From: Deinococcus radiodurans R1 = ATCC 13939 = DSM 20539
Lineage (GTDB): Bacteria; Deinococcota; Deinococci; Deinococcales; Deinococcaceae
Direction: 5' to 3'
NCBI RefSeq assembly: GCF_000008565.1
Contig: NC_001264.1
Span: forward strand, 348,347 to 380,346
DNA length: 32,000 nt
How positions within the stretch are numbered: the first letter of the stretch is position 1; every line of letters begins with the position of its first letter. Below are positions 1,221-20,374 of this stretch, one piece after another. A program made the translations under genes and the position numbers. The notes beneath the pieces were generated by a model. That model was not told the origin of the DNA, searched no databases, and saw nothing but the letters and a program-made list of their open reading frames with translations.

Positions 1221-1348
1221 AGCCTTTGACAAAAAGATGGCACAGCTTTTTGGCGAGCGAAGCGAGTACAAAACACGGAGCAGGACGAAGAATGCAGCGG
1301 GTGGCGGTGCTGTTTGGACACCCGCGTAATTCGGAGAACTGCTCTAAG
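1217..1348 (-). repeat. Small non-coding repeat (Deinococcus SNR/MITE-like), copy 1, inverted and internally deleted relative to copies 2 and 3
   Basis: Termini TTAGAG...CTCTAAG. It shares the blocks TTTGACAAAAAGATGGCACAGCTT...GGCGAGCG and CGCGTAATTCGGAGAACTGCTCTA with the elements at 10184-10376 and 13422-13592, in reverse complement. Confidence 0.85.
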
Positions 1349-4226: not shown

Positions 4227-4262
4227 ATTGATTGGCCACCGGTAGGACCGGCCCGGCACTCC

Positions 4263-4290
4263 CTCCCGGCAGAGCGCACCCTGCCGGGAG
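4263..4290 (+). terminator. Perfect 10-bp GC-rich stem-loop after the PNGase-like gene
   Basis: CTCCCGGCAG-AGCGCACC-CTGCCGGGAG lies 37 nt after the stop at 4226. It falls inside the implausible N-terminal extension of the track ORF 4232..5548. Confidence 0.5.
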
Positions 4291-4426
4291 CTGTCATGCC
4301 CAGTCGCCTCGCTCCCCTCACCCGTCTCAGCAAACCGGTCAGTCCCACAGGGACAAAAACTCTAGACTGAAGAATGTCAGCTTATTTGCACCGGGCGGGC
4401 GGCACCCCGCGTCCAGGACGCTGCCC

Positions 4427-5548: not shown

Positions 5549-6251
5549 GACTTGGCCCGATTTCAGTCGCCGTGAGCAGAACGTCCCGGAGCTGATGGAC
5601 GACCCGGCGTGCGACCTGCGCCAGCTTGAGCGCACCTACGCGCAGTTCGAGCAGGTCAACGCGCTGGTTTCGGGCTGGGAAGTGGTCTACCGGCGCGAGC
5701 TGCGGCCCCGGCTGCGGCGGGACCGGGCCATGACGCTGCTCGACATCGGCTGCGGTGGGGGCGACCTGGCGCGGCAATTGCTTCGCTGGGCGGCGCGGGA
5801 CGGCTTTTCCCTGCGGGTGCTGGGCATCGACGCCGACGAGCGGGCCATTCACTACGCCCAGGCGCAGCCGCCGCGCTCCGGCCTGAGCTTCCGGGCCGCG
5901 CTGAGCGGGGAGCTGCTGCGTGGGGGCGAGCGCTTCGACTTCATCGTTTCCAACCACGTGCTGCACCACCTTACCGACGCCGAGGTGCCGGAGCTGCTGC
6001 GCGACTGCGAGGGTCTGTGCCGGGGCGTCACGCTGCACAGCGACATCGAGCGGCACCCGCTGGCCTACGCGGGCTTTGCGCTGCTCGCCGCGCCGCTGTT
6101 CCGCGACTCGTTCATCCTTTATGACGGCACGCTTTCCGTGCGCCGCAGCTTCCGGGAGGACGAACTGCGGCGCCTTGCCCCGGCGGGCTGGCAGGTCACG
6201 CGGCCCTTTCCGTTCCGGCTGCTGCTGAAACATGAGGCCGGGCGTGCTTGA
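5541..6251 (+). CDS. Class I SAM-dependent methyltransferase
   Basis: SAM-binding motif I is LLDIGCGGGDLARQL. The GTG start overlaps the PKS stop by 8 nt. Length 236 aa. Confidence 0.8.
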   Translation: MNRTWPDFSRREQNVPELMDDPACDLRQLERTYAQFEQVNALVSGWEVVYRRELRPRLRRDRAMTLLDIGCGGGDLARQLLRWAARDGFSLRVLGIDADERAIHYAQAQPPRSGLSFRAALSGELLRGGERFDFIVSNHVLHHLTDAEVPELLRDCEGLCRGVTLHSDIERHPLAYAGFALLAAPLFRDSFILYDGTLSVRRSFREDELRRLAPAGWQVTRPFPFRLLLKHEAGRA

Positions 6252-7386
6252 CGTGCTGGTGGTGGGCGGCGGGCCGGTGGGGACATTTCTGGGAGCGCTG
6301 CTGGCAAAAAGCGGCCTGAGCGTGCAGGTCTGCGAGCGGCGCACGGCACCCTGGGAACATTCCCGCGCCATCGGGCTTCACCCACCGGCTCTGCGGGCGT
6401 TCGAGTCCATCGGCCTGACCCCGGCCATCGTGGAGGCCGCCGTCAAAATCCGGCGCGGGCTGGTCATCGGGGAGACGGGCGTGCTCGGCGAACTGCCGAT
6501 GACCGGGGCGGGACGGGATTACCCGTTCATCCTGGCGCTGCCGCAGGTGGAAACCGAGCGGCGGCTCTGGGAGCGCCTGGACGACCTCGCCCCGGACGCC
6601 CTGCGGCGCGGCTGCGAGGTGCGCGAGGTGCGTGACCTGGGAGGCCACTGCGAGGTCACGGTCACCCAGGACGGACGCGAGGAGCGCCTGAGTGCCCGCT
6701 TCGTCGTGGCGGCGGACGGCTGGCGCTCGGCGGTGCGGACGGCGGCGGGAATCGGGTTTCACGGCGGCCCCTACCCCGACCCCTACCTGATGGGCGATTT
6801 TCCCGACACCACACCCTTCGGCGACGACGCTGTGGTGTTCATCAAGCCGGGCGGCGTGGTGGAATGTTTTCCGCTGCCGGGCCGCCTGCGACGCTGGGTG
6901 GTGCATCTCGGTCAAGCTCTGGCTGACCCGCTGCCTGAGGACCTCACCCGCATCATCCGCGAGCGCACCGGCCTGCCGGTTCCGACCTCCGAATGCCGGA
7001 TGCTCAGCGCCTTCGGGGTGCAGCGCTTTCAAGCGGCGCGAATGTGGCAGGGCCGGCTGCTGCTCGTCGGCGACGCCGCGCATGTGGTCAGCCCCATCGG
7101 CGGGCAGGGCATGACGCTCGGGTGGCTGGACGCCCTGGCCCTCGCGCCGCTGCTCACGCGGGCGTGCCGGGGAGACACCGTGACTGACCGCGACTGGCAC
7201 GCCTTCGAGCGCCGCCGCCTGCGGTCCAGTGCGCTCGCCAGCCGGCAGGCCGAGCTGAACATGGCGGCGGGGCGCCCGGCCCGGGGTGGGCTGACCCAGC
7301 CGCTGCGCGAGGCGCTGCTCGCCGGCCTGCTGAAGTCGCCCGCACAACCGCTGCTCGCCGCAACATTCACCATGCGCTGGCTGTGA
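6232..7386 (+). CDS. FAD-dependent aromatic-ring monooxygenase (class A flavoprotein hydroxylase, UbiH/PHBH-like)
   Basis: N-terminal dinucleotide fold VLVVGGGPVGTFLGALLAKSG. The DG motif ADGWRS and the GD motif LLLVGDAAHVVSPIGGQGM are present. It overlaps the methyltransferase gene by 20 nt. Confidence 0.85.
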   Translation: MRPGVLDVLVVGGGPVGTFLGALLAKSGLSVQVCERRTAPWEHSRAIGLHPPALRAFESIGLTPAIVEAAVKIRRGLVIGETGVLGELPMTGAGRDYPFILALPQVETERRLWERLDDLAPDALRRGCEVREVRDLGGHCEVTVTQDGREERLSARFVVAADGWRSAVRTAAGIGFHGGPYPDPYLMGDFPDTTPFGDDAVVFIKPGGVVECFPLPGRLRRWVVHLGQALADPLPEDLTRIIRERTGLPVPTSECRMLSAFGVQRFQAARMWQGRLLLVGDAAHVVSPIGGQGMTLGWLDALALAPLLTRACRGDTVTDRDWHAFERRRLRSSALASRQAELNMAAGRPARGGLTQPLREALLAGLLKSPAQPLLAATFTMRWL

Positions 7387-7399
7387 GAAAGTCATCCTG

Positions 7400-8656
7400 A
7401 TGCGCATCCTCATCGCCTCGCAGCCCATCGCCGGACACGTGTTGCCGCTCCGGGAAATCGCCCGCGAACTCGCCCGGCGCGGCCACGAGCTGCGCTGGTA
7501 CACCGGGCGCAAGTTCCGGCCCCAGGTCGAAGCGGCAGGCGCCGTGTGGGAGGGCTTCGTCCACGCCCGCGACTACGACGACGCGAATTTCGACGCCGCC
7601 TTCCCTGGCCGCAGTGCCCGGCGCGGGCTGGCGCAACTGCTGTTCGACCTGCGGCACGTCTTCGTGGGGCAGATGGAAGGGCAGTTTTACGACCTGCGCG
7701 ACCTCGAGCGGCGCTGGCGACCCGACGTGGTGCTGGCCGACCAGACGGTGGGCGCGGCGCTGCTGCGCGAGGAACTCGGCGGCCCGCCGGTGGCGCTGCT
7801 CGGCGTGTTGCCGCTGGGGATTGCCAGCCGGGACACCGCGCCTTTCGGGCTGGGCCTCGCGCCGCTGGGGGGGGCTGCCGGTCAACTCAGGAACAGGGCT
7901 TTACAAGTGCTGACTGAGCGAGTCGTGTTCCGGGGCATCTCCGCGCAGCTCGCCGACCTTTGCACGTGGCTGGGACTGCCGGCTCGTTCTTTTGCGCCGC
8001 CCGTCGCCCCCTCGCTGATGCTGCAACCGAGCGTGCCGCGCCTGGAATACCTCCGGCGTGACCTGCCGCCGCAGGTGCGCTTCATTGGACCGCTGGTGCT
8101 GCCCGCTGGCGAGTTCACGCCGCCCGCGTGGTGGAACGACATTCTGACTGCTGAGCGGCCCGTGGTCCTCGTCACGCAGGGCACGCTGGCGACCCGGCCT
8201 GAGCAACTGCTGCGCCCAGCCCTGGCCGCGCTGGCCGACGAGGACGTGCTGGTGGTGGCGGCGGGCGTGGCCCCTGAGCGCCTCGGCCCGCTGCCTGCCA
8301 ATGCGCGTGCGGCGGCGTTCGTCCCCTTCACGGCGCTGCTGCCGCACGTCGCGGTGTCCCTCACCAACGGCGGGTATGGCGGCACCGTGCAGGCGCTGAG
8401 CCACGGCGTGCCGTGCGTGGTGGCGGGCCGCAGTGAGGACAAGGCCGAGGTCGCGGCGCGGGTGGCGTACAGCGGCGCGGGCCTGAACCTGGGCACGGCC
8501 ACGCCTTCACCTGCCCGAATTCGTGCGGCGGTGCGGCGGGTGCTGCGCGAACCGGCCTTCCGCGAGCAGGCGGGCGAGCTGGGGCACGAGCTGCGGCAGC
8601 ACGACGCGCCGCGTGAGGCGGCAGACTGGCTCGAAACCCTGGGAGGAAAGAAATGA
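7400..8656 (+). CDS. GT1-family (MGT/UDP-glycosyltransferase-like) glycosyltransferase
   Basis: The N-terminus MRILIASQPIAGHVLPLREIARELARRGHEL and the C-terminal nucleotide-sugar binding block TNGGYGGTVQALSHGVPCVVAGRSEDKAEVAARV are typical of macrolide/sterol-type GT1 enzymes. Confidence 0.8.
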   Translation: MRILIASQPIAGHVLPLREIARELARRGHELRWYTGRKFRPQVEAAGAVWEGFVHARDYDDANFDAAFPGRSARRGLAQLLFDLRHVFVGQMEGQFYDLRDLERRWRPDVVLADQTVGAALLREELGGPPVALLGVLPLGIASRDTAPFGLGLAPLGGAAGQLRNRALQVLTERVVFRGISAQLADLCTWLGLPARSFAPPVAPSLMLQPSVPRLEYLRRDLPPQVRFIGPLVLPAGEFTPPAWWNDILTAERPVVLVTQGTLATRPEQLLRPALAALADEDVLVVAAGVAPERLGPLPANARAAAFVPFTALLPHVAVSLTNGGYGGTVQALSHGVPCVVAGRSEDKAEVAARVAYSGAGLNLGTATPSPARIRAAVRRVLREPAFREQAGELGHELRQHDAPREAADWLETLGGKK

Positions 8657-10139
8657 AAAGGCGCCTGCTGCTCGCCCTGGCCCTGTGCCTGACCCCGGGG
8701 AGCGCCCATGCGCAGGGCTTTCGCGTCCTTGGCCTCAACGTCCTGCCCGGGTCGCTGCCGCCCGCCGACCTGAACGTGCTCGACGGGCTGGGCACGGCGT
8801 CCTGCCCACCGCCGGCTGGCCGCCTCGACCGGCTGCTCTCCCAGGAATTGCAGGGGCAAGGGGCCAACCTGAGCTGCGGCAACCGCTTTGAGGCGCTCAT
8901 CGAATTTCCCGGCCCTGCCGCCGCGCACCCCTGGGGCAGCTACGCCGAGCTCGCCCGCCGCATTCAGGAGGCGAAAAGCAGTGTCCTGCTGGCGAACATG
9001 GTGTGGGACGAGGGCCAGGGCGCACCGGGCCAGCTTATCGCTGCCGCGCTGGCCGACTTGCGCCGCAATGTCCTGGCCCACCCCGAACAGTACCCGCAGG
9101 GCATGAGCGTGCGCGTGCTGCTCGGCAACTCGGTGCGGCCTGACCGCCCGGCAGATCCCCGCGCCAATCTGGATTACGCGGTCAAAGACCTCCTCGGCGC
9201 GGGACTCGACCTCAGCGGTCAGGCAGAGGGCGGCTGGCGGCTGGACGTGGCGAACTTCAGCTACGCCGCGCCGCACAGCCACCTCAAACTGCTGGTGCTC
9301 GACGGTGAGGAGGTCGTGGCGGGGGGCTACAACATCAGCACCCTGCACCTGTCACCAGAAGCAGGGGGCAAGGGCCTGCGCGACCTCGGGCTGGTGGTGC
9401 GCGGCCCCATCGCCCGCAACGCGGTGGCTGCGTTCTACGACACCTGGCAACTGAGCGAGCGCCTGACCTGCCCAGCGGGCACGCGCCCCGGCACCGCCCT
9501 GAGCGTGCGCCGGGCCTGTCCGCTGGGCGGCGAGAGTGCGCCCTTCACGTTGCTGTGGCCGCCCGCCGCGCCCGCCGGCACCGCCAACGTCTATTCGCTC
9601 TACCGCCGCAGCGGCGTGACGGCTGCCGACCACGCCCTCACCGCGCTGCTGGGGGCGGCGAAGACCTCCATCGACCTGCTGCAAACCCAGGTCAGCGGCG
9701 ACCTCAGTTGCGACCTCACGCTGGGCACGCCGCAGGGCTGCGACCTCGCCACGCACGGCTTCCGGCGTGGCAGGCCGTGGCCGACGCGCTGCGCCGGGGA
9801 GTCCACGTGCGGCTGGTGCTCGATCAGGCCTATCCGATGAAGTTCGAGGCCGCCGCCCTGGTCCGCAGCCTGCAAGACGCGCTGGCGGGAACCGGGGCCG
9901 CAGACCGGCTGGAAGTGCGCTGGGCCGGGCACCCGATGCACACCAAAGCCATCGTGGTGGACGGAGAAATGGCGGTCTTCGGCAGCACCAACCTGCATTT
10001 TTCCTCGTTCGGGCCGGCGGGACTGAGCGAATACACGCTGGCGACGAGTGACGCCGGGGCCATTGCCCGGATGCAAGACATCTTCGAGGGGGAGTGGAAG
10101 ATGGCCCGGCCTTTCACTTTTCCCTGGTGGGCACGGTGA
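8653..10139 (+). pseudogene. Secreted phospholipase D / cardiolipin synthase-superfamily protein with two HKD motifs; the frame is broken by an apparent 1-nt deletion near 9750-9765
   Basis: Signal peptide MKRRLLLALALCLTPGSAHA. HKD-1 is HSHLKLLVLDGEEVVAGGYNIS, in the 8653 frame. HKD-2 is HPMHTKAIVVDGEMAVFGSTNL, preceded by WQAVADALRRGVHVRLVLD, in the 9555 frame. The two halves join naturally around ...DLATHG / PAWQAV.... The ATGA overlap with the GT gene indicates coupling. Confidence 0.75.
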
Positions 10140-10183
10140 GGGCGGCGCCCGGCTGAACGGCTGAACTCTCGCCTACCGCGCTC

Positions 10184-10376
10184 CTAGAGCAGTTCTCCGA
10201 ATGACGCGTGCGTCGGCAGCGGCGCCGCTGGCCGCTCCATTCTCTCCTGAGGAGCTGTACCAGTCTGCTTCGCAGCTTTGCAAGTCCGTCCTGCTCAACG
10301 TTTTGCACTCGCTCTCTGCGAGCTGTACCAGTCCGCTCGCCAAAAAGCTGTGCCATCTTTTTGTCAAATGCTCTAG
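10184..10376 (+). repeat. Small non-coding repeat (SNR/MITE-like), copy 2, the longest copy
   Basis: It runs from CTAGAGCAGTTCTCCGAATGACGCGTGCGTCGG to GCTGTGCCATCTTTTTGTCAAATGCTCTAG. It aligns along its length with copy 3 but carries an extra internal segment of about 22-30 nt. Confidence 0.85.
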
Positions 10377-10462
10377 TAAATCCGCGTGAGGCCCCGGCTC
10401 ATGGCCGCTTTGTCCCGGCACCTATACTTGCCCACAGAAATTGCACGCAAGGAGCGCTGAAT

Positions 10463-11845
10463 ATGCTAGAGGCCAAGCTGAAACCCCACCGTGAATACCT
10501 GCTGGCGCAGTCCGCCGGCCAGAAACTCTTTCTGACCCTGACCGTGAAGCCCACCGCCGAGGCGCGGCAGGCGCGGCCCGACCTGAGCGTGGTGTTCGTG
10601 GTGGACACCTCCGGCTCCATGCGCGAGGTCGTGACCGAACCCACCGAGCGCACCGGGCGCACGACGCAGGTGGACGGTCAGGTCTACGAAGTCGTCAAGG
10701 GCGGCAAAAACAAGATGCAGCTGATGATCGAGGCGCTGCGCGGCATCGTGACCTCCACCCTGATTCGGCCGGGCGACCGCCTCGCGCTGGTCAAGTTCGA
10801 CGACACCGCCGAGGTCCTTGTCCCATTCATCACCGCCAGCAATCAGGCGCAGCTCGCCGCCGCCGTGGACAAGCTCGACTGGTACTCGGGCGGCACCCAC
10901 ATGGGCGCGGGAATGCGCGCCGGGGCCGGCCTGCTCACGGGCGAGCGCGGCAGCCGCCGCATGGTGCTGATCAGCGACGGGCAGACCTTCGACGCGCCGC
11001 TGGTGGAAGACCAGATCGGCGCCCTGGCAGGGCTGCAAGTGCCCGTGACGGTGGTGGCCGTGGGCGACGAGGTGAACGCCGACCTGCTCACCGCCATCGC
11101 CGACCGCACGCAGGGGCAGCCGCTCGACATCGTGCCCGACACGCAAAATCCGCAGCCGCCCGCCATCCGCGCTTCCGAGTTGCCTGCCGCGCTGCTCGGC
11201 GACCTGCAAAAAGCCGCCGCCGAAGTGGTCACGGGCGTGGCCCTCTCGGTCCGCACCGTCAAAGACGTGGTCCTCGAGCGCGTCACCCGCGTGCAGCCCA
11301 CCCAGACCGAGGTGGCGCTGCGGGCCGACGGGCCTCTCCCGCTCGGCAACGTGGACGCGGGCAGCGGGGCGACCTTCGTGCTGGAGTTCACCCTGCCTGC
11401 CCGCCCGGCGACCAAGATGCGGCTCGCGCAGCTCGGCCTGACCTACGAGGTGCCCGGCGCGAACTACCGGGGCGAGATTCCCCCGCTCGACGTGGTGGTG
11501 GAATTTACCGGCGAGGAAGCCCTGGCCGCCCGGATAGACCCCGAGGTCATGGGCTGGGTGCAGCAGCGCAACATCGAGGGGCTGGTCGCGCAGGCCACCC
11601 GCGAGGCGAACCAGAACCCCGAACAGGCGGCCAAGACGCTTGAGCAGGCCCGCGCCATGACCCAGCGCCTCGGCAACGGCGCCATGACGCAGGCACTCGA
11701 CCGCGCCATCGGCGAACTCGGCAGCTCCAAGACCATCAGCCTCGGCACCGCCAAGACGCTCAAAATCGGCGCCAAGACCCAGACCCTCAGCAGCGACGCC
11801 GCCCTGCCGTCCGATGAGGACATCCGCCGCATGACCGGAGCCTGA
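10463..11845 (+). CDS. Cytoplasmic von Willebrand factor A (vWA) domain protein with intact MIDAS, plus a C-terminal beta-rich and helical extension
   Basis: MIDAS elements are VVDTSGSM, GGTHMG and LISDGQ. No signal peptide or TM segment is visible. The ATG at 10463 is preceded by AAGGAG. The longer track ORF start at 10208 lies inside the repeat. Confidence 0.85.
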   Translation: MLEAKLKPHREYLLAQSAGQKLFLTLTVKPTAEARQARPDLSVVFVVDTSGSMREVVTEPTERTGRTTQVDGQVYEVVKGGKNKMQLMIEALRGIVTSTLIRPGDRLALVKFDDTAEVLVPFITASNQAQLAAAVDKLDWYSGGTHMGAGMRAGAGLLTGERGSRRMVLISDGQTFDAPLVEDQIGALAGLQVPVTVVAVGDEVNADLLTAIADRTQGQPLDIVPDTQNPQPPAIRASELPAALLGDLQKAAAEVVTGVALSVRTVKDVVLERVTRVQPTQTEVALRADGPLPLGNVDAGSGATFVLEFTLPARPATKMRLAQLGLTYEVPGANYRGEIPPLDVVVEFTGEEALAARIDPEVMGWVQQRNIEGLVAQATREANQNPEQAAKTLEQARAMTQRLGNGAMTQALDRAIGELGSSKTISLGTAKTLKIGAKTQTLSSDAALPSDEDIRRMTGA

Positions 11846-11850
11846 AGCGG

Positions 11851-13425
11851 GTGACGGCCCCCCAGACCTGTCCTTTTTGCGGTTCGCCCGCCGCGCCGAC
11901 CGATACGGTGTGCCATGTCTGCGGCGCGGCGCTGGGCCGGGGCGGGGCCACCGCGCTGCTCACGCTGCCGCCCGGCACCACGTTGCAGGGCGGGCAGTAC
12001 GTGCTCGACCGGGTGCTCGGGCAGGGCGGCTTCGGCATCACCTACGACGCCCGCGACACCCGGCTGGGGATGCGGGTCGCCGTCAAGGAACTGTTCGTGG
12101 ACGGGTCCACCCGGCGCGGCCTGAACGTGATTCCGCCGCTCAGCCAGGGCGCGGAGGTGTTCGCGGCCACCCGGCGCGGCTTTCTGGAAGAGGCGCAGGT
12201 GCTCGCCCGCTTTGGCGACCCCAGCATCGTGCGGGTGCTCAATTACTTTGAGGAGAACGGCACCGCGTACCTCGTCATGGAGTTTCTGGAAGGCGAAACG
12301 CTCGGCGAGGCCATTCAGAAGCGGGGGCCGCTCCCGCCGCTCATCGCCGCGCAGGTGGCCGACTCGGTGGCGCACGCGCTCGAGGTCGTGCACGCCGCCG
12401 GGCTGCTCCACCGCGACATCAAGCCCGACAATATTTTTCTGCACCACTCGGGCCGCATCATTTTGATTGACTTCGGCTCGGTGCGCGCCTTCGACAGCGG
12501 CAAGACGGTGGCGCATACCCGGCTGGTCACGCCCGGCTACGCGCCGCTGGAGCAGTACAGCAGCGCCGCCAAGTTCGGGCCGTACACCGACCTCTACGCG
12601 CTCGGGGCGACCCTGTTTCACGCCCTGACCGGCCAGATGCCGCCCGCCGCTACCGACCTCTCGCTCGGCACGCCGCTGCCGCCGCTGCCCCCCGGAACCC
12701 CGCCCAACCTGCGTGAAGCGGTGCTGAGCTGCATGGCGCCGCGCATCGAAAACCGGCCTCAGAGTGCTCAGGCCCTGCGGCGGATTCTGCGCGGAGAGGG
12801 AACGGTGACGGTCACGGCGGCGCCCGCCGCTGCGCCGGCTCCACAGCCCCAATCTCAGCCGGTGCGTCCAAGTCCAGCGCCTACTCCGACTCCGATGCCC
12901 AACCCGCAAACGGACCGGGAGGTGGAAAAACGGCTCCGGGAGCTGGAAAAAGAAGTCCGCAAGGAGGCGCGGAGGCAGTCCCGGCGCCCTGCACCGGCAC
13001 CCGCTCCCATTCCCATCCCTGCGCCAGCGCCCCAGCGCCCTGCGCCCCCTCCCACCCCCTTTCCTGGCCCCAGGCGCCCCGCCGCGCCCCGTGACGGAAC
13101 GCTGGGGCGGCGGCTGGTCGTGGTCGCCATCACTGTGCTCAGCGCCTTGAGTGGCGGCATACTCATGGCGCAGACGCCGGCCTGGCAAATCATTTCTCCA
13201 CCTGAACTCAGTGTGATGGCGGGCGCCGGGATCGGAGCCCTCGCCGGGCTGGCGCTCGGGCAGTTGCTGTGGTGGGCGTTGCCGGTGGCGCTGCCCATCT
13301 TCGCGGCGGCGATTACCTCCAGCGTATGTCAAAACCTTGGCTATAGGCCGCCCACTGTGATTGCCGCGAGCGTCGCCGCTATCGTGGTCTCGCTCATTCT
13401 GATGCGGCTGATTCGGCGCATCTAG
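11851..13425 (+). CDS. Hanks-type Ser/Thr protein kinase with an N-terminal zinc ribbon, a Pro-rich/charged linker and a C-terminal multi-TM region
   Basis: Zinc ribbon CPFCGSPAAPTDTVCHVCG. Kinase motifs GQGGFG, VAVKEL, HRDIKPDN, DFGS and TPGYAPLEQ. The hydrophobic C-terminus has about 4 helices. GTG start. The stop TAG (13423-13425) lies within the first bases of repeat copy 3. Confidence 0.9.
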   Translation: MTAPQTCPFCGSPAAPTDTVCHVCGAALGRGGATALLTLPPGTTLQGGQYVLDRVLGQGGFGITYDARDTRLGMRVAVKELFVDGSTRRGLNVIPPLSQGAEVFAATRRGFLEEAQVLARFGDPSIVRVLNYFEENGTAYLVMEFLEGETLGEAIQKRGPLPPLIAAQVADSVAHALEVVHAAGLLHRDIKPDNIFLHHSGRIILIDFGSVRAFDSGKTVAHTRLVTPGYAPLEQYSSAAKFGPYTDLYALGATLFHALTGQMPPAATDLSLGTPLPPLPPGTPPNLREAVLSCMAPRIENRPQSAQALRRILRGEGTVTVTAAPAAAPAPQPQSQPVRPSPAPTPTPMPNPQTDREVEKRLRELEKEVRKEARRQSRRPAPAPAPIPIPAPAPQRPAPPPTPFPGPRRPAAPRDGTLGRRLVVVAITVLSALSGGILMAQTPAWQIISPPELSVMAGAGIGALAGLALGQLLWWALPVALPIFAAAITSSVCQNLGYRPPTVIAASVAAIVVSLILMRLIRRI

Positions 13426-13592
13426 AGCAGTTCTCCGAATTACGCGTGCGTCGGAACAGCACCGCCACTCGCTCCATTCTCCGCTTCGCGGCTTTGCAAG
13501 TCCGTCCTGCTCAGTCTTTTGTACTCGCTCTCTGCGAGCTGTACCAGTCCGCTCGCCAACAAGCTGTGCCATCTTTTTGTCAAATCCTCTAA
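13422..13592 (+). repeat. Small non-coding repeat (SNR/MITE-like), copy 3
   Basis: It runs from CTAGAGCAGTTCTCCGAATTACGCGTGCGTCGG to GCTGTGCCATCTTTTTGTCAAATCCTCTAA. It has the same family and orientation as copy 2. Confidence 0.85.
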
Positions 13593-13639
13593 ACGCACAC
13601 CCTGACTTTCCCCCTTCACTCAGCCCCAGGAGGCCTCCC

Positions 13640-14584
13640 ATGAGCATCACCTGCGAAGTTTGCGGCACCGTCAACCCCACCGGCACCCAGTTCTGCGAAG
13701 GCTGCGGTGTGGAGCTCAAAGCCAGCACCGCGACCAGCGACACGACCGCTCAGGCGGCGGCCCCGGAGGCGTCGGCCATGACGACGAACGACGCTACCGT
13801 CAGCCAGCCCGACCTCGGGGCGCCCAACATTCCCCCTGCCCCCAGCATTCCCGACGCCCCGGTGATGCCCGCACCGGCGCTGGACTCGCAGGCGAGCGTG
13901 CCGAGCGGCCTGGAAGCGCCCGCGACCGACAGCGCGACTGGGGACAACACGACGAACGAAACGGTACCGGCAGCGCCCACCGCGACCCCGGTGATGGACG
14001 AGTCGGTGCCCGCCGACACTGGCGCCAACGAGGTGGAAGCCGCCCCCACTGGTACTGAATCCGAGCCGGCCCCTACCGTCAACCCTGACCTGACGAGCAC
14101 CGCCGACGCCCCGCTGACCGACGCCGCCGTGAGCGCCAATGCCCCTGAGATGTCCAACCCCGAAGCGGCGGCGATGGAGACGGCAACGACCGAAACTCCT
14201 GCTGTGGCTGCCGCTCCCACCGCTTCGGGCACCCCCCGCACCGGCGAGGCCAAACTGGGCATCAAGAAGTTCGGCAGCGCGACCGGCGACTTTATTCCGC
14301 TGCAAGGTGAGCGGCTGATGGTCGGGCGCTTCGATGCGTCGAGCGGCCCGGTGGACATCGACCTCTCCTCGCTGCCGGGCGCCGAGCACATCTCGCGTCA
14401 CCACGCCGAGCTCTACCGCGAGGGCAGCCAGTGGTTCGTGCGCGACCTCGGCTCCACCAACGGCGTGTTCGTGCGCAAGGGCGGCCAGAGTGCCTTCTCA
14501 CCGCGCTTGCAGGAGCCCACGGCGCTGTCGGACGGCGACGAACTCGCCTTCGGCAACCTGATGCTCACCTTCCACCAGGACTGA
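13640..14584 (+). CDS. FHA-domain protein with an N-terminal zinc ribbon and a long acidic Thr/Pro/Ala-rich linker
   Basis: Zinc ribbon CEVCGTVNPTGTQFCEGCG. The C-terminal FHA signature is LMVGR...DIDLS....HISRHHAEL......WFVRDLGSTNGVFV. The ATG at 13640 is preceded by CCAGGAGG. Confidence 0.88.
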   Translation: MSITCEVCGTVNPTGTQFCEGCGVELKASTATSDTTAQAAAPEASAMTTNDATVSQPDLGAPNIPPAPSIPDAPVMPAPALDSQASVPSGLEAPATDSATGDNTTNETVPAAPTATPVMDESVPADTGANEVEAAPTGTESEPAPTVNPDLTSTADAPLTDAAVSANAPEMSNPEAAAMETATTETPAVAAAPTASGTPRTGEAKLGIKKFGSATGDFIPLQGERLMVGRFDASSGPVDIDLSSLPGAEHISRHHAELYREGSQWFVRDLGSTNGVFVRKGGQSAFSPRLQEPTALSDGDELAFGNLMLTFHQD

Positions 14585-14585
14585 C

Positions 14586-16436
14586 GTGAACGAGAACCAC
14601 CCGCGCATTGACATCCAGTTCGGCGACGACGCGAGTGGGGCGGCCCCTGAGCCTGCTCCCCCGGCCCCGGAAGGCGCCCCGCCCAGCGAATTGCCGCAGA
14701 CCCTGGTGGTGAGCGCCGACCCGGACGCCACGCCCGAGGCTTCCGCGACCGAGGCGGACGAAGCCTTTACCCCCGAGGAAAAGGCCATCAACCGCTTCGA
14801 GAGCGAGAGCCCGGCGCCTGACCCCGAGGAGTTGGAAGAGCTGGCGCAGGAAACGGACGCCGCTGAAGTTCCCGCCGAGGAACCGGCAGAAGCGGCCCAG
14901 CCGACTGAGCCTGCCGCCGCCGCGCCCGCCGAGGAACCCGCGCCCGTCACCGCTCCGCAGGCCGGCGTCACCAACGACCTCGAAGAGCAGGTCTACGAAC
15001 CCAGCGTGCCGGCGCAGGGGCCGCAGCCCGGCGACGTGCTGGGCGAGTGGACGCTGCAAGACGACCTCGGGCGCGGCTGGTTCACCGCCCGGTCGAGCGG
15101 CGAGCAGACGGAGGGGGAAACGCAGCCCCAACTCGTCTACGTCCGCCCCGACCCGCAGTGGGCCACGCTGCGCCCGCACCGCCTGCTGCCGCGCACCCGG
15201 CAGGCCGGTGAGGTGCAGGTGGTCGAGCCGGTGAGCGGCGAGGAGCTGCCCGCGACCCTGCCCACTCCGCAGGCGCTGGCTTCCCTCGGCGACCTCGCCC
15301 GGCTGCTGTTCGCGCTGGAAAAGCAGGGCTACGCGCTGACCGACCTCGACCCGCAGCAGCTCGTGCGGGGGGAGGGCGGCCTGAAACTGCGCCAGCCTCC
15401 CCGCGTGGTGCGGCTGGGCGAACCCGATCCTGGTGCCCTGCGCGACGGCTTGACGGCGCCCGAAGTGCTCGCGGGGCAAGCGGCAGACGGAGCGGCGGGC
15501 GTGTACCTGCTCGGCGCGCTGCTCTACCGCTGGCTGACCGGGGAGACGCCCCCACCCGGTGGTCCCTCTCTCATCGAACTCGGTAGCCTCAAGGTGCCGG
15601 GCGTGCCGCAACTGCTCGCGGGGATGCTCTCCCCCGCGCCGGTCAGGACGCGCCCGCAGGAGCTGCTCACGGCTCTGACCCGGCTCAACGCCGCGCCGCT
15701 GCCCATCTACCGGGTGGCCGCCCGCACCACGGTGGGCCTCAACCCCGACCGCCCGGCCAACGAAGACTCCTACGGCTACTGGCAATATCAAATGGAAGCC
15801 GACGCCGAGGAAACCCTCGTCCTGCGGGCCTGCGTCTGCGACGGCATGGGCGGCATGGCGGCGGGCGAGGTGGCGAGTCAGGCGGCGGTGCAGGCCTTCC
15901 TGAACTCCGACAAGACGGACCTTCCCGGACAGGTCTGGGACGCCAACGCGGCGGTGCTCACGGCCATGAACGGGCGCGACGGCGGCTGCACCATCAGCGG
16001 CGTGGAGCTGCGCGGCACCAAGCTGCAACTCGGGCATGTGGGCGACACCCGCGCTTACCTCCGCATGGACGGCGAGGTGCGGCAGCTCACGCAGGACCAC
16101 TCCTTCGTCGCGGCGATGGTCGCGAGCGGCCAGATGACGCCCGAGGAAGCGCAGGTCAGCCCCGAACGCAACAAGGTGCTGCGCTCGCTCGGGAGCCTGC
16201 GCCAGCCACAGCCCGACTATGTGCAGACGCTCGCCGAGCCGCTGGAACTGCCGGTGGGCAGCCGCGTGTTGATCGTCACCGATGGCGTGTGGGGCGAGGT
16301 GGAACCGGCTACCTTGAACGAACTGCTGCTCGGAGAAAGCGACCCGCAGGCGCTGGCCGACCGGCTGGTGCAGCTTTCGCTGGACGCCGGGGCGCCCGAC
16401 AACGCCACCGCGCTGGTGATCGAGAGAACGGCGTGA
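14586..16436 (+). CDS. PP2C-family Ser/Thr phosphatase fused to an N-terminal acidic region and a degenerate kinase-like (pseudokinase) domain
   Basis: PP2C motifs are NEDSYG, VCDGMGGM, GDTRAYL, TQDHS, VTDGVW and DNATALVI. The middle region aligns by eye to kinase subdomains (YALTDLDPQQLV in place of HRDIKPDN; TAPEVL; GALLYRWLTGETPP) but lacks the catalytic HRD and DFG residues. The GTG start lies 1 nt after the FHA stop. Confidence 0.85.
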   Translation: MNENHPRIDIQFGDDASGAAPEPAPPAPEGAPPSELPQTLVVSADPDATPEASATEADEAFTPEEKAINRFESESPAPDPEELEELAQETDAAEVPAEEPAEAAQPTEPAAAAPAEEPAPVTAPQAGVTNDLEEQVYEPSVPAQGPQPGDVLGEWTLQDDLGRGWFTARSSGEQTEGETQPQLVYVRPDPQWATLRPHRLLPRTRQAGEVQVVEPVSGEELPATLPTPQALASLGDLARLLFALEKQGYALTDLDPQQLVRGEGGLKLRQPPRVVRLGEPDPGALRDGLTAPEVLAGQAADGAAGVYLLGALLYRWLTGETPPPGGPSLIELGSLKVPGVPQLLAGMLSPAPVRTRPQELLTALTRLNAAPLPIYRVAARTTVGLNPDRPANEDSYGYWQYQMEADAEETLVLRACVCDGMGGMAAGEVASQAAVQAFLNSDKTDLPGQVWDANAAVLTAMNGRDGGCTISGVELRGTKLQLGHVGDTRAYLRMDGEVRQLTQDHSFVAAMVASGQMTPEEAQVSPERNKVLRSLGSLRQPQPDYVQTLAEPLELPVGSRVLIVTDGVWGEVEPATLNELLLGESDPQALADRLVQLSLDAGAPDNATALVIERTA

Positions 16437-16476
16437 GGGACTTCGCCGCGCGTGTCGAGTCAGGGAGAGGCCACCC

Positions 16477-19440
16477 GTGAACTGCCCCACCTGCGGCTCG
16501 CCCGTTCCGGCGGGCGCGACCAACTGCCCGGTCTGCGGCTCGCCGCTGGGGGGCAACAGCCAGACATTGCCGCCCGGCACCACGTTGCAGGGCGGCAAGT
16601 ACCGGCTGGAGCAGGTGCTGGGGCAGGGCGGCTTCGGCATCACCTACCTCGGCAGCCAGACACAGCTCGGGGCGCGGGTCGCCATCAAGGAACTGTTCCC
16701 GAGCGGCTCTACCCGGCAAAGCGGCCAGTACGTGCTGCCGCCTGCGGGCACCGACCCGGCGGGCTGGGCGCAGGCCAAGCAGGACTTCACGGCGGAGGGC
16801 CGCACCGTCGCCCGCTTCAACCACCCCGACATCGTGCGGGTCATGGACCTGTTTGAGGAAAACGGGACCGCCTACCTCGTCATGGAGTTTCTGGAGGGGC
16901 AGACCCTCGGCAGCGCGATTGAAAAGCGCGGGCCGCTGCCCCCGGACGAAGTGGTCAACATCGCCAAACGCGTCCTCGGCGCCCTGAGCGTGGTCCACAG
17001 CGCGGGGATGCTGCACCGCGACATCAAGCCCGACAACATCTATCTCGACAAGGCGGGGCGCACCGTCCTGATTGACTTCGGCTCGGCGCGCACCTTCGCG
17101 GCGGGGCAGACGGTGAGTCACACCCGGCTGGTCACGCCCGGCTACGCGCCGCTGGAGCAGTACAGCGGTTCGGCCAAATTCGGACCGTACACCGACATCT
17201 ACGCACTCGGGGCGACCCTCTACCACGCCCTGACCGGCCACCCGCCCACCCCCGCCACCGACCGGACGATGGGGACGCCGCTTGCGCCGCTGCCGCCGAA
17301 CACACCCCCGGCGCTGCGCGAGGCGATTGAGCGCAGCCTCGCCATCAAAATCAACGAGCGCCCGCAAAGCACGCAGGAAGTGCTGGCGCTGCTCAATCAG
17401 GTGTCGGTGGCGCCTCAATCTGCGCCCGCTGCCCCGGCGCCCCGGCCTACGCCCCCGCAGCGCAACCAGACCTTTCCCCCTGCCCCGCAGCCGACGCCCC
17501 AGCGGCAGCCGCAGCGCCCACCTCAGCCCGTACCCCAGCCGCCAGCCCAGCGGCGCCGGGGGCCGGGGTGTGGGTGCCTGTTTCCGCTGCTCCTCCTCGG
17601 CGGTCTCGCGCTGTACGGGATGAACGTGCTCGGGCCGCTGCTGTCGCCCTCTCAGACAGAGACTACCACCACCAGCGAGCAGACCCAGCCCGAGCCACCT
17701 GCCCAGACGCCGACCACACCTACCGAAGACCCCACCATCCCCCAGGCGCCCGGTACCACCGATTCGGGGCAAGACTGGCAAAGCGGCGACTCCATTGATC
17801 TGGGCTTGCCCGGCAGCAACGGGGAAACGCCCGCCCAGACCGACAATACGGCAACGCCTGAAACCACCACTCAGGGCAACGCGGGCACTGAAACAAATCC
17901 CACCACAACTCCGGAGACGAACACCAGCACTGCGCCGACCAGCGGCGAACTCGTCGTCACCGCACCGAACGTCACCCTGCGCTCGGCGGCGGACGCGGCG
18001 GCAAATAGCCTCGGAACGCTGGCGGCGGGCAGCACCGTGCAGATTCTCCAGACGCAGGACGGCTGGTACGAGGTGCAGACGACGAGCGGACAGCGCGGGT
18101 GGGTGGGCACGGACGCGGCCCTGCCGCCTGTCAGCGCCGAAGCCCTGAAAGCATTGCAGACGGCGGCGGGACAGGGCGGCGACGTGCAGCTCTCCCCCGG
18201 CGTCTACCGCCTTCAGGAGCCGCTGGTGCTCTCGCAGGATGCCCACCTGACCGGGGCCGGGCGTGACCGCACCTGGATCACCTCGGCGGCGGGGAACGCC
18301 GTACTTACCACGCGCGGCAACGTCTCTCTGCAAGGCGTCACCGTGGGGTGGACGGGACAGACGCCGGGCGGAGCGCTGCTGGCCGAGGGCGGCACCGTCA
18401 CTCTGCGCGACGCCCGGCTGACTGGCGGTGTGCGCGACGAGACGCGCAACGAGTCCGGCAGCGGCTTACAGCTTTCGCAGGGCGCGCAGGGCGACGTGCA
18501 GGGCAGCGACCTCGTTGGCAACGCTTACGGCGCGTCTGTCAGTGATACAGCGCAGCTCAAGCTGAAAGACAGCACCCTGAGCGACAACTCGCTCGGCGGG
18601 GCCATCTTTCTGGACAGCTCGGGCGGCGAGGTGCGCGGCAGCACGCTGGAGCGCAACGGCGGCGACGGTCTGACGGTGCGGCACACGGCGGCCCCGGTCA
18701 TTGTGGACAGCGAGCTGCGCGACAACGGCGAGCGCGGCCTGAGTGTGGAAGGTCAGGCCAAACCAACCGTCAAGCGCGTGACCGCCAGCGGCAACACACT
18801 GCAAGGCATCGGCGTGCAGGACGACGCGCAGCCGCAGCTCAGCAACAACAAGCTGACGGGGAATGGGCAAGAAGGCCTGACCTACGCCGACCGCGCCGGA
18901 GGCCGCGCCAGCGAGAACGAGCTGAGCGGCAATCAGGTCGGCATCGCCGTGCAGGGCAGCGCCGCGCCGGAGCTGCGGACGAACATCATCCGCGACAGCC
19001 GCGACGCGGGCCTGAGCTACGCCGGGCAAGCGGGCGGCACGGCAAGAGGCAACACCATCACCGGCAGCGCCAAACCCGGCATCTCGCTGTGGGGCGAAGC
19101 GCAGCCCACCCTCAGCAGCAACGTGATTCAGGGCGGCGCCCAGAGTGGCATCGTCTTTGCCGAACACGCGGGCGGCACCCTGGACAGCAACGAAGTCCTC
19201 GGCAACGCGCTCAGCGGCCTGGTCGTCAGGGACACGGCGGCGCCCGAGGTGCGCGGCAACACCTTCCAGGACAACGGCAAGGCGGCCATGGTCTACGAAG
19301 GCGAGGCGGGAGGCCGGGTCAGCGGCAACACCTGCCAGGGCAACGGCAGCGACGTGATCGAGCTGCACCTGACCAGCGTGCTCGCCGGGCCGGACCTCTC
19401 CGGGGCGAGCTGCGCGGTACAGACGCAGGGAAACTGGTAA
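16477..19440 (+). CDS. Receptor-type Hanks Ser/Thr kinase: zinc ribbon, kinase domain, Pro-rich linker, single TM, Thr/Pro-rich spacer, SH3b-like domain and about 12 parallel beta-helix (PbH1/CASH-like) repeats
   Basis: Zinc ribbon CPTCGSPVPAGATNCPVCG. Kinase motifs VAIKEL, HRDIKPDN, DFGS and TPGYAPLEQ. The TM segment is CGCLFPLLLLGGLALYGMNVLGPLL (about 17566-17643). The SH3b-like segment is LRSAADAAANSLGTLAAGSTVQILQTQDGWYEVQT.SGQRGWV (about 17941-18110). Units of about 22-23 aa recur as G..V......P.L..N.I..N...G across 18200-19380. Confidence 0.9.
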   Translation: MNCPTCGSPVPAGATNCPVCGSPLGGNSQTLPPGTTLQGGKYRLEQVLGQGGFGITYLGSQTQLGARVAIKELFPSGSTRQSGQYVLPPAGTDPAGWAQAKQDFTAEGRTVARFNHPDIVRVMDLFEENGTAYLVMEFLEGQTLGSAIEKRGPLPPDEVVNIAKRVLGALSVVHSAGMLHRDIKPDNIYLDKAGRTVLIDFGSARTFAAGQTVSHTRLVTPGYAPLEQYSGSAKFGPYTDIYALGATLYHALTGHPPTPATDRTMGTPLAPLPPNTPPALREAIERSLAIKINERPQSTQEVLALLNQVSVAPQSAPAAPAPRPTPPQRNQTFPPAPQPTPQRQPQRPPQPVPQPPAQRRRGPGCGCLFPLLLLGGLALYGMNVLGPLLSPSQTETTTTSEQTQPEPPAQTPTTPTEDPTIPQAPGTTDSGQDWQSGDSIDLGLPGSNGETPAQTDNTATPETTTQGNAGTETNPTTTPETNTSTAPTSGELVVTAPNVTLRSAADAAANSLGTLAAGSTVQILQTQDGWYEVQTTSGQRGWVGTDAALPPVSAEALKALQTAAGQGGDVQLSPGVYRLQEPLVLSQDAHLTGAGRDRTWITSAAGNAVLTTRGNVSLQGVTVGWTGQTPGGALLAEGGTVTLRDARLTGGVRDETRNESGSGLQLSQGAQGDVQGSDLVGNAYGASVSDTAQLKLKDSTLSDNSLGGAIFLDSSGGEVRGSTLERNGGDGLTVRHTAAPVIVDSELRDNGERGLSVEGQAKPTVKRVTASGNTLQGIGVQDDAQPQLSNNKLTGNGQEGLTYADRAGGRASENELSGNQVGIAVQGSAAPELRTNIIRDSRDAGLSYAGQAGGTARGNTITGSAKPGISLWGEAQPTLSSNVIQGGAQSGIVFAEHAGGTLDSNEVLGNALSGLVVRDTAAPEVRGNTFQDNGKAAMVYEGEAGGRVSGNTCQGNGSDVIELHLTSVLAGPDLSGASCAVQTQGNW

Positions 19441-19456
19441 CTCTTCCCGCGTGGCG

Positions 19457-19488
19457 CAGGCCCCCAGGCCCTCAGCGGTGGGGGCCTG
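19457..19488. terminator. Stem-loop between the convergent STK and LysR genes (9-bp perfect stem)
   Basis: CAGGCCCCC-N14-GGGGGCCTG is followed by TTT. It overlaps the last codons of the minus-strand LysR gene. Confidence 0.45.
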
Positions 19489-20374
19489 TTTCCTGCATGT
19501 CGCCCACCAGCGCTGTGAAGTTGAGCACAGTGGCCGCCCGTTCGTGTGGGCGGCACAGCAGCGTGAGGTCCACAGTGGGCACCGGGGGCCGCAGCTCCAG
19601 ATACTCGCAGCCCTCCAGATTCAGGCGCCGCATCGCGTCGGGGACCAGCGACACGCCAAGCCCGGCGGCAACGAGGCTGACGATGGAGAGCATCTGCGGC
19701 GCGAGCTGCCCCAGCCGGGGCTCAAAGCCGGCGGCGCGGCACGCCTGCCACACGGTGTCGTAGATGAGCGGGCCGAATTCGCGCGGCGTGGTGATGAACG
19801 TCTCGTCGCGCAGCCGTTCCAGCGGCAGAGGCCGGGTCTGCGCCGCCGGGTGTCCGCGCGGCACCACCGCCACCATCGGTTCGCGGGCGACCAGGGTCAG
19901 CGTGAGGTCGCCGAGGTGCTGCGGCAGCGGGCGGGCGAGCACGGCGTCGAGCTGGTGCGAACGCAATTCATCGAGCAGGGTGACGGTGTTTTTCTCGGTC
20001 AGCGTCAGCCGCACGTCGGGGTACAGGTCGCGGTAGCGGCGCAGCAGCCCCTGCACCTGCGGGTTGATGCTCGCCGCGCCGGTAAAGCCCACCCGCAGTT
20101 CGCCCGTTTCACCGCGCCCGGCCCGCCGCGCTTCGTGGGTGGCGCCCTCCACCTGCGCCGGAATGGACTGCACCAGCCGCAAAAAGGTGTGCCCGGCCTC
20201 GGTGAGTTCCACCCCACGCGGTACGCGGTGAAACAGCGGCGTGCCGATTTCGCGCTCCAGCTCGCGGATTTGCTGACTGAGCGGCGGCTGCTGAATGCCC
20301 AGCCGGGCGGCGGCGCGGGTCACGTTGCGCTCGTCCGCCACCGCCAGGAAGTAACGCAGGTGCCGCAGCTCCAT
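19472..20374 (-). CDS. LysR-family transcriptional regulator
   Basis: The N-terminal wHTH is MELRHLRYFLAVADERNVTRAAARLGIQQPPLSQQIRELE, followed by a substrate-binding domain. The start is taken at ATG 20374 because the family-typical MELRHLRYF begins there. It is divergent from gcdH. Confidence 0.9.
   Translation of the reverse strand: MELRHLRYFLAVADERNVTRAAARLGIQQPPLSQQIRELEREIGTPLFHRVPRGVELTEAGHTFLRLVQSIPAQVEGATHEARRAGRGETGELRVGFTGAASINPQVQGLLRRYRDLYPDVRLTLTEKNTVTLLDELRSHQLDAVLARPLPQHLGDLTLTLVAREPMVAVVPRGHPAAQTRPLPLERLRDETFITTPREFGPLIYDTVWQACRAAGFEPRLGQLAPQMLSIVSLVAAGLGVSLVPDAMRRLNLEGCEYLELRPPVPTVDLTLLCRPHERAATVLNFTALVGDMQETGPHR

Follow-up and report, generated by a model that had tools for sequence, protein, structure and literature searches.

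A vWA–kinase–FHA–phosphatase cassette of Deinococcus radiodurans as a candidate bacterial counterpart of archaeal ArnA/ArnB

What kind of system do the five genes DRA0331 to DRA0335 of Deinococcus radiodurans form? They lie on the forward strand of chromosome II, within a stretch of 32,000 nucleotides that we analyzed as a whole (the window), and a sequence-only reading had already proposed that they make up one co-conserved signaling module, built from a vWA protein, two Hanks-type Ser/Thr kinases, an FHA protein and a PP2C phosphatase. The module is borne out by the orthologous loci described below, and all five domain calls hold up in searches with Pfam and NCBIfam models, in motif inspection and in profile searches. 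The finding is real: the genes form one coherent module in a known class of Ser/Thr signaling modules, and its components have been partly characterized. We favor, with moderate confidence, a model in which the core of the locus, DRA0331 to DRA0334, works as a Ser/Thr phospho-switch complete in itself, which corresponds in Bacteria to the archaeal ArnA/ArnB pair and is equipped with its own writer and eraser.

The likeness begins with the vWA protein DRA0331 (Pfam VWA, 1e-17). Its vWA domain with the metal-ion-dependent adhesion site (MIDAS) occupies residues 41-224 and is followed by a four-helix bundle (360-439) and a conserved tail (440-460). In the AlphaFold2 model (pLDDT, the per-residue confidence score, 88.9) strands at 2-30 and 254-349 form a beta-sandwich that the vWA domain splits, and the helices span 360-439. 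The description of DRA0331 as a cytoplasmic protein with an intact MIDAS stands, since no transmembrane (TM) segment is predicted and the MIDAS residues D48-x-S50-x-S52, T145 and D172 are invariant among 38 orthologues. When the model was compared with the PDB by Foldseek, the best match was the Catenulispora vWA protein 4FX5 (2e-25); ArnB (8s05_A) was matched with an E value of 2.8e-23 and a target TM-score of 0.77 over about 450 aligned columns, and the ArnB paralogue ArnE (5A8J) at 6.5e-19. Further down the ranking came an inter-alpha-inhibitor heavy chain, a pilus protein and, after these, many Sec23/Sec24 chains. A search of 1.8 billion representatives with the C-terminal half of DRA0331 alone gave 210 clusters at the 50% identity level. 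Ten conserved Ser/Thr residues fall within the 67 residues from 392 to 458, in the last helices and the tail, whereas the remaining 393 residues contain 14 (Fisher p = 8e-4), and this cluster provides candidate phospho-acceptor sites. The tail itself (11780-11842) is disordered by prediction (pLDDT below 50) yet nearly invariant across phyla, with the pattern LP..eeIR..TGA. It resembles a short linear docking motif, and it is also conceivable that it serves as an acidic ligand of the MIDAS.

The FHA protein DRA0333 adds the second half of the comparison. It consists of an N-terminal C4 zinc ribbon (residues 5-23; Pfam Zn_Ribbon/DZR), a low-complexity linker and a C-terminal FHA domain (229-305; Pfam FHA, 7e-14) in which the GR, SxxH (SRHH) and NG motifs are present, and no TM segment is predicted in it. 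Its best sequence matches among all PDB chains are the two ArnA chains 5a8i and 8s05_C, both at 3e-9, with ribbon and FHA domain both aligned. The coordinates of all features are given in Table 1.

Table 1. Genes and other features of the locus, in window coordinates
Feature	Position	Strand	Description
DRA0331	10463..11845	+	460 aa, cytoplasmic ArnB-like vWA protein
Conserved Ser/Thr cluster	11636..11836	+	T392, T400, T409, T424, S426, T429, T432, T439, T441, T458 of DRA0331
DRA0332 (kinase 1)	11851..13425	+	524-aa Hanks Ser/Thr kinase
DRA0333	13640..14584	+	314-aa ArnA-like protein
DRA0334	14586..16436	+	616 aa
DRA0335 (kinase 2)	16477..19440	+	987-aa receptor-type Hanks kinase
MITE-like repeat, copy A	10185..10375	+	in 323-nt spacer upstream of vWA gene
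MITE-like repeat, copy B	13423..13591	+	between genes 2 and 3
MITE-like repeat, third copy	1218-1346	-	far from locus
GC-rich hairpin	19458..19495	.	between gene 5 end and convergent LysR gene; read from sequence

Full-length orthologues of DRA0331, at 44-95% identity, occur in Deinococcus, Deinobacterium, Meiothermus, Trueperaceae, Gloeobacter-like cyanobacteria and Candidatus Acididesulfobacter. A genome scan together with contig look-ups gave 32 non-redundant loci that hold such an orthologue, 28 of them with enough flanking sequence to be informative (individual loci are cited by our L numbers). Their content was scored by tblastn with the domains of the window, and a set was called complete when kinase, FHA protein and PP2C were encoded on the same strand within 6 kb. 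The complete set stands beside the vWA gene in 23 of the 28 loci, an incomplete set in three, and the vWA gene is alone in two; because the arrangement recurs so widely among orthologous loci, it does not reflect chance. The complete set spans Deinococcota, Cyanobacteria, Chloroflexota and others, so that the co-occurrence of vWA, kinase, FHA and PP2C genes extends beyond Deinococcota into other phyla. Among about 48 loci with a generic vWA match only, none has the set beside the vWA gene, and the association is thus specific to the vWA family to which DRA0331 belongs. The vWA gene is the most constant member of the cassette across phyla.

Gene order varies between lineages. The order vWA–kinase–FHA–PP2C is found in nearly all Deinococcota (in L020 the kinase gene lies upstream of the vWA gene, and L027 has the order of the other phyla), and vWA–FHA–PP2C–kinase is found in Cyanobacteria, Chloroflexota, Acididesulfobacter and unclassified metagenome-assembled genomes (MAGs). 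The vWA and FHA genes are therefore adjacent in the cyanobacterial, Chloroflexota and Acididesulfobacter loci, and in nearly all Deinococcota only the kinase gene lies between them. A second shared trait is an N-terminal zinc ribbon of the form CxxC-x10-13-CxxC. It is present in every cassette kinase inspected, bar the N-terminally short second kinase of Prochloron (L038), and in every FHA protein inspected, bar a frameshifted record of D. radiodurans DRR11 (L006), Acididesulfobacter (L002) and Prochloron (L038).

How might these parts work together? In the ArnA/ArnB pair, the beta-sandwich and helical bundle of ArnB form the docking site for the zinc ribbon of ArnA, a Thr cluster in that bundle is the substrate of the Hanks kinase ArnC, the FHA domain then binds tightly, and PP2A resets the pair (PMC12852372, PMC6509490). 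By analogy, DRA0332, and in D. radiodurans also the receptor kinase DRA0335 with its SH3b/beta-helix ectodomain, would phosphorylate the Thr cluster of DRA0331, and DRA0333 would dock on DRA0331 by its zinc ribbon first and then tightly through the contact between its FHA domain and phosphothreonine (pThr). The N-terminal zinc ribbons of the kinases plausibly dock these enzymes on the same DRA0331 hub. A pseudokinase domain in DRA0334 could steer the phosphatase to activated kinases by contacts of the kinase-kinase type and in this way reset the switch, and either the MIDAS face of DRA0331 or the released zinc ribbon might relay the state of the switch to a downstream target, the intact MIDAS being free to hold a downstream ligand. 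DRA0335 would then act as a Deinococcus-specific second input. The part roles proposed from the sequence alone are reasonable: both Hanks kinases would be active, the FHA protein would read pThr, and the PP2C would erase it with the help of a dead kinase-like docking domain.

As to the output, a stress or redox response is our leading guess, because DRA0331, DRA0333 and DRA0334 are co-induced in an oxyR mutant (3.97-, 4.28- and 3.67-fold, respectively; PMC2225504) and because ArnA is described as a DNA-damage-response repressor in Saccharolobus islandicus (PMC10470591). A bolder version of the model would make the cassette an ancient pan-bacterial homologue of ArnA/ArnB, and hence of the Sec23/24 core, with a shared zinc-ribbon docking code on one vWA hub for writer, reader and, indirectly, eraser, acting in Deinococcus as a redox or DNA-damage switch parallel to ArnA in S. 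islandicus. We regard this extension as tentative and, on balance, doubtful.

Several points weigh against a switch of the ArnA/ArnB type. Outside the vWA domain the likeness of DRA0331 to ArnB, as modeled, is structural only: a profile of the vWA family finds 8s05_A at 5.7e-12 and 5a8j at 1.2e-8 through the vWA domain alone (for 8s05, vWA positions 102-228), Pfam has no family in the C-terminal half of DRA0331, and there is no detectable sequence similarity to ArnB in that half. The same tripartite vWA fold also occurs in proteins that are not known as phospho-regulated, 4FX5 and Escherichia coli YfbK (PMC12852372). Phosphorylation of DRA0331 and its binding by DRA0333 are steps that we infer from the archaeal pair, and docking of the kinases by their zinc ribbons, however plausible, is pure analogy. 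In vitro, DRA0334 also acts on several kinases that are not encoded in the locus, so that the module is perhaps not insulated. Finally, the cassette is not universal around orthologues of DRA0331. The vWA gene stands alone in Anthocerotibacter and in one Deinococcus MAG, the FHA gene is missing from L023, and L035 and L037 have the kinase only.

The two kinases bear on the input side of the model. In DRA0332 an N-terminal C4 zinc ribbon (residues 7-24) precedes the kinase domain (50-314; Pfam Pkinase, 1.4e-36), which is followed by a Pro-rich linker and four C-terminal TM segments (420-517), a region in which Pfam finds no family. DRA0335 has a zinc ribbon (3-20), a kinase domain (42-300; Pkinase, 1e-39), a single TM segment (364-382) and a Thr/Pro-rich spacer, and its ectodomain comprises an SH3b domain (498-544; SH3_3, 5e-12) and a right-handed beta-helix (about 559-965; Beta_helix, 5e-39). 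The contrast drawn earlier between a multi-TM kinase and one with a large ectodomain is thus upheld, with four C-terminal hydrophobic segments in the one and a single segment in the other. Both retain GQGGFG, VA[VI]K, HRDIKPDN and DFG. Their kinase domains are about 60% identical and contain the peptides on which the claim of close paralogy had been based. In a preprint, DRA0332 phosphorylates DRA0333 and is dephosphorylated by DRA0334 (bioRxiv 10.64898/2026.01.23.701218).

A second kinase gene after the PP2C gene is confined to D. radiodurans, D. wulumuqiensis and one Deinococcus MAG, and in a rough neighbor-joining tree these second kinases form the sister clade to kinase 1, which points to an origin of DRA0335 by duplication within Deinococcus. 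The proposal of an expanded, five-part module therefore needs to be divided: the four core genes are co-conserved, and the fifth is a lineage-specific add-on. Trueperaceae, where they lie upstream of the vWA gene, and one proteobacterial MAG likewise have kinases with a beta-helix ectodomain attached to the cassette (L017 7797-9563, L033 4210-6042, L035 2217-3988). The Trueperaceae beta-helix kinases cluster in the rough tree with the cassette kinase of their own lineage and not with DRA0335. This suggests that the same type of sensor was recruited repeatedly and that the Trueperaceae duplication was apparently independent.

These receptor-like kinases raise the possibility of an envelope-sensing pathway comparable to PknB/PstP/FhaA-FhaB or to PpkA/PppA/Fha1 of the type VI secretion system (T6SS), with a cell-wall or polysaccharide input and, as output, control of cell-wall synthesis, of division or of a surface machine. 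Both kinases are membrane proteins, the SH3b and pectate-lyase/NosD-like beta-helix of the DRA0335 ectodomain are typical glycan-binding folds, and beta-helix kinases have joined the cassette in Trueperaceae, apparently independently, and in the proteobacterial MAG. Moreover, a gene for a T2SS-E/PilB-type ATPase lies upstream in Acididesulfobacter, and ArnA/ArnB itself controls a machine of the type-IV-pilus kind. Yet the cassette has no recurring neighbors among cell-wall, division or secretion genes, most Deinococcus loci lack DRA0335, and the cassette kinase of cyanobacteria is soluble, with TPR repeats that in filamentous species form the C-terminus instead of TM segments. We consider an envelope pathway unlikely, although it concerns input and output and is compatible with the ArnA/ArnB-type explanation.

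The eraser, DRA0334, has a disordered N-terminus (residues 1-130), a domain at about 150-370 (15033-15695) and a PP2C domain at 375-614 (15708-16427), with no TM segment predicted. The PP2C domain matches NCBIfam Stp1_PP2C at 2.4e-41, the closest solved PP2C is PstP (1e-26), and all four metal-binding Asp residues are retained in 28/28 sequences. Within the N-domain, residues 210-368 have been named a 'KI-FHA' domain (bioRxiv 10.64898/2026.01.23.701218). A profile of residues 130-372 matches 813 PDB kinase sequences, with StkP and PknB first at 4e-13, and hhalign gives the same profile a 97% probability against kinase 1 (E 5e-11) but only 0.1% against the FHA domain of DRA0333. More distant homologues of DRA0334 have a Pfam Pkinase match at the position of the N-domain, and the model of this domain contains long helices (227-246, 302-318, 340-367) that correspond to a kinase C-lobe and do not fit an FHA beta-sandwich. 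The 'KI-FHA' label is rejected on these grounds. The catalytic residues are degenerate: the HRD Asp is retained in only 16/28 sequences (Gly in 10), the Lys and Asn of the catalytic loop are replaced, the DFG Asp is absent from the family, with Q, F or L in its place, Arg has taken the place of the VAIK Lys in 19/28 and the Gly-rich loop is shortened. All 28 sequences keep the APE Glu. Judged by its sequence, then, the N-domain is a catalytically degenerate kinase domain, that is, a pseudokinase, and the earlier description of a PP2C fused to a dead kinase-like domain was correct.

The same preprint makes outdated the earlier statement that no function had been assigned to such a locus in Deinococcus, since, in a study of DRA0331 to DRA0334, it characterized DRA0332, DRA0333 and DRA0334 biochemically in January 2026. 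According to its authors, the PP2C activity of DRA0334 depends on Mn and removes phosphate from DRA0332, RqkA and DR1243 in vitro and in E. coli. They further report that DRA0333 stimulates kinase phosphorylation and antagonizes DRA0334, that the N-domain of DRA0334 confers selectivity, and that the phosphatase-dead D394A protein stimulates RqkA (bioRxiv 10.64898/2026.01.23.701218). In the model put forward there, DRA0334 is a KAPP-like 'KI-FHA + PP2C' hub phosphatase whose main task is to reset RqkA, the DNA-damage kinase. Kinase pThr sites are contested between DRA0333 and the KI-FHA domain, and the vWA protein is peripheral. We think it quite unlikely that this is the right account of the cassette. 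The N-domain is of the kinase and not the FHA type, a kinase-PP2C fusion in D. radiodurans was listed as early as 2005 (PMC1262709), and the reported effects fit a pseudokinase that docks on kinases or activates them allosterically. The constancy of the vWA gene across phyla speaks for a role that is intrinsic to the vWA protein and not specific to RqkA. The preprint also holds that the arrangement is unique to D. radiodurans, a claim that we reject in view of the complete loci in several phyla.

DRA0333 carries a further label, FraH-related, in STRING and in the preprint. We searched for relatives with a cyanobacterial cassette FHA protein as query and obtained 336, of which 120 are listed (Nostoc, Anabaena, Calothrix, Trichodesmium and Moorena among them). 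None of the 120 matches listed is named FraH, and all are shorter than FraH, whose length we take to be about 289 aa; the search neither confirms nor excludes the label.

The sequence-only reading had seen in the locus an expanded TerY-P triad. As a rival to the ArnA/ArnB-type switch, this would be a conflict or anti-phage module in which a defense effector is under the control of a vWA/PP2C/kinase triad that detects invasion or metal stress. The triad was reportedly defined by Anantharaman, Iyer and Aravind in 2012, and a stand-alone defense system of this type is said to have been found by Gao and colleagues in 2020. The parts lists do overlap: as in TerY-P, for which a phosphorylation-dependent switch has also been proposed, genes for a MIDAS-intact vWA protein, a PP2C and a zinc-ribbon Ser/Thr kinase share one operon. 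The cassette kinases also score well against kinase models of PADLOC (mad6 and PD-T4-6, for example), copies of a mobile repeat flank one side of the locus, and in Acididesulfobacter a PIN/PhdYeFM pair and an IS605 element follow the cassette. The kinase matches, however, reflect generic Hanks similarity; in PADLOC-DB v2, which we presume to contain TerY-P models, the vWA and FHA proteins have no match and the PP2C has only a weak one to PDC-M21C. Nor is there a Pfam match of DRA0331 to PF10138, the TerF/TerY-type vWA, at E <= 0.01. TerY is a short vWA protein of the TerF type that lacks the beta-sandwich and helical bundle of the 460-residue DRA0331, and FHA proteins and pseudokinases are not TerY-P parts. 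The kinases of TerY-P, which is CoCoNuT-associated, carry a zinc ribbon or an OB fold at the C-terminus (PMC11090510), unlike DRA0332 and DRA0335, in which the ribbon is N-terminal and the C-termini are TM segments or the SH3b and beta-helix ectodomain. TerY-P sits beside restriction or Ter genes, whereas no nuclease, restriction or effector gene recurs beside the cassette, and within Deinococcota identity to the orthologous proteins drops off smoothly as taxonomic distance grows, a pattern suggestive of vertical inheritance. With the wrong type of vWA, a different kinase architecture and no restriction or nuclease partners nearby, the TerY-P assignment is not supported, and we judge a defense role of this type highly improbable.

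The layout of the locus agrees with the earlier description of five co-oriented genes, most of them tightly spaced. Gaps of 5, 1 and 40 nt are confirmed by the limits of the open reading frames and by RefSeq annotation, and the remaining gap, between genes 2 and 3, measures 214 nt and holds a repeat. Window positions 10100-19600 match record NZ_OV024759, which is filed among plasmids, over the full length bar one base, and the RefSeq coding-sequence (CDS) limits on that record equal those given here, the FHA gene excepted, which is split in two there. The single difference lies in a C homopolymer in the linker of the FHA gene (14231-14237) that is one base shorter in D. radiodurans DRR11, where the frameshifted gene is annotated as two CDS, a 'hypothetical protein' and an 'FHA domain-containing protein'; it is either a sequencing error or a sign of a slippage-prone tract.

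The repeat belongs to an element of roughly 130-190 bp that resembles miniature inverted-repeat transposable elements (MITEs), with TAGAG...CTCTA ends and three copies in the window; copies similar to copy A are also present on other D. radiodurans replicons. Copy B is inserted exactly at the stop codon of DRA0332, the TAG with which it starts replacing the ancestral stop, and TA is duplicated at both of its ends. D. wulumuqiensis, with the same five genes, has the empty site (L007 8990-9050), and the end of kinase 1, ...LIRRI, is unchanged. The locus had been described as bracketed and split by repeats; the upstream and the internal copy are there, but no copy lies downstream of 19440, so the bracketing holds on one side only. 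Scans of copy B turned up neither a terminator-like site nor unusual RNA structure (z = 0.49). A scan for the sigma-70 consensus gave no match anywhere, which says little for Deinococcus. The repeat does not obviously uncouple the genes, because DRA0331 upstream of it and DRA0333 and DRA0334 downstream are all up about fourfold in the oxyR mutant (PMC2225504). The hairpin after gene 5 is a possible bidirectional terminator; it falls below the T-run criterion of the terminator scan.

All-against-all clustering of the flanking open reading frames of the 28 loci revealed no recurring gene outside the cassette, a cyanobacteria-specific block excepted, and no T6SS genes are annotated across 31.5 kb around the D. 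radiodurans locus. In Scytonema (L026 122-16079; likewise L029, L032, L036 and L038) the cassette is the tail of a co-oriented 12-gene array of filamentous cyanobacteria that also encodes two further vWA proteins, an ARC6-like protein with an IMS domain, a beta-lactamase-family protein and several proteins without a Pfam match. In Ca. Acididesulfobacter (L002 3823-9807 and 16642-19501) extra genes flank the cassette. Those just upstream of the vWA gene encode a T2SS-E/MshE-type ATPase and two more zinc-ribbon proteins, and a PhdYeFM/PIN toxin-antitoxin pair and an IS605-type element are found downstream. The unclassified MAG L023 encodes two tandem ArnB-like vWA paralogues (7166-8524, 10001-11326) and has no FHA gene between vWA and PP2C. 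In the window, the upstream region 4232-10139 holds co-oriented genes for a type III polyketide synthase, an S-adenosylmethionine-dependent methyltransferase, an FAD oxidoreductase, a glycosyltransferase and a phospholipase D-like protein, which looks like a small operon for the synthesis of a lipid or phenolic lipid. On D. wulumuqiensis pDrdA the cassette lies directly downstream of the DNA-damage-response genes pprA and lexA (L007 4179-5762), and the genes that follow it, for an acyl-CoA dehydrogenase, kynU and kynA, are common to D. radiodurans and D. wulumuqiensis.

What is new here is the link to ArnA/ArnB, the wide phylogenetic spread of the cassette, the zinc ribbon shared by its kinases and FHA protein, the candidate phospho-acceptor cluster and the correction of the 'KI-FHA' label. 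Only in few cases of bacterial Hanks-kinase signaling is a writer encoded together with its reader, its eraser and a candidate substrate or scaffold in a set that is conserved across phyla. The ArnA/ArnB link provides predictions about the phosphorylated residues, the role of the zinc ribbons and the role of the pseudokinase. Two claims in current work on D. radiodurans are corrected, the uniqueness of the arrangement and the FHA nature of the docking domain of the phosphatase. If the model is right, the architecture of ArnB and the Sec23/24 core, within a phospho-regulated system, extends into Bacteria.

Where does this leave the cassette among known systems? The T6SS circuit PpkA/PppA/Fha1 of Pseudomonas aeruginosa likewise brings a Hanks kinase and a PP2C together with an FHA reader and a vWA domain, and PppA is among the PDB matches. 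Its vWA domain, however, is periplasmic and fused to the kinase, whereas that of DRA0331 is separate and cytoplasmic; Fha1 lacks a zinc ribbon, and the circuit is embedded in a T6SS gene cluster. The mycobacterial PknB/PstP/FhaA-FhaB and GarA systems share with the cassette a Hanks kinase, a PP2C and stand-alone FHA proteins, but they lack a vWA partner and zinc ribbons, their phosphatase has no fused pseudokinase, and their links are with genes for the cell wall and for division. The Sec23/Sec24 core of the eukaryotic COPII coat shares with the present system a zinc finger, a vWA-like trunk, a beta-barrel and a helical domain, but the resemblance is at the level of the fold only (about 10% identity, TM-score about 0.35 normalized to the Sec23/24 chain), and the cassette has neither a gelsolin domain nor a GTPase partner; the authors of the ArnAB work drew the same comparison (PMC12852372).

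The ArnA/ArnB system of Sulfolobus acidocaldarius (8S05, 5A8I, 5A8J), which represses motility, with its kinases ArnC and ArnD and its phosphatase PP2A, differs from the cassette in several respects. The cassette is bacterial and has the kinase and phosphatase genes in the same operon, its eraser is a PP2C fused to a pseudokinase and not PP2A, its kinases are membrane-anchored and carry zinc ribbons of their own, and its target cannot be an archaellum. The two systems nevertheless have in common a vWA domain inserted in a beta-sandwich and followed by a Thr-rich helical bundle, a partner made of a C4 zinc ribbon, a flexible linker and an FHA domain, and a Hanks kinase as writer with a Ser/Thr phosphatase as eraser.

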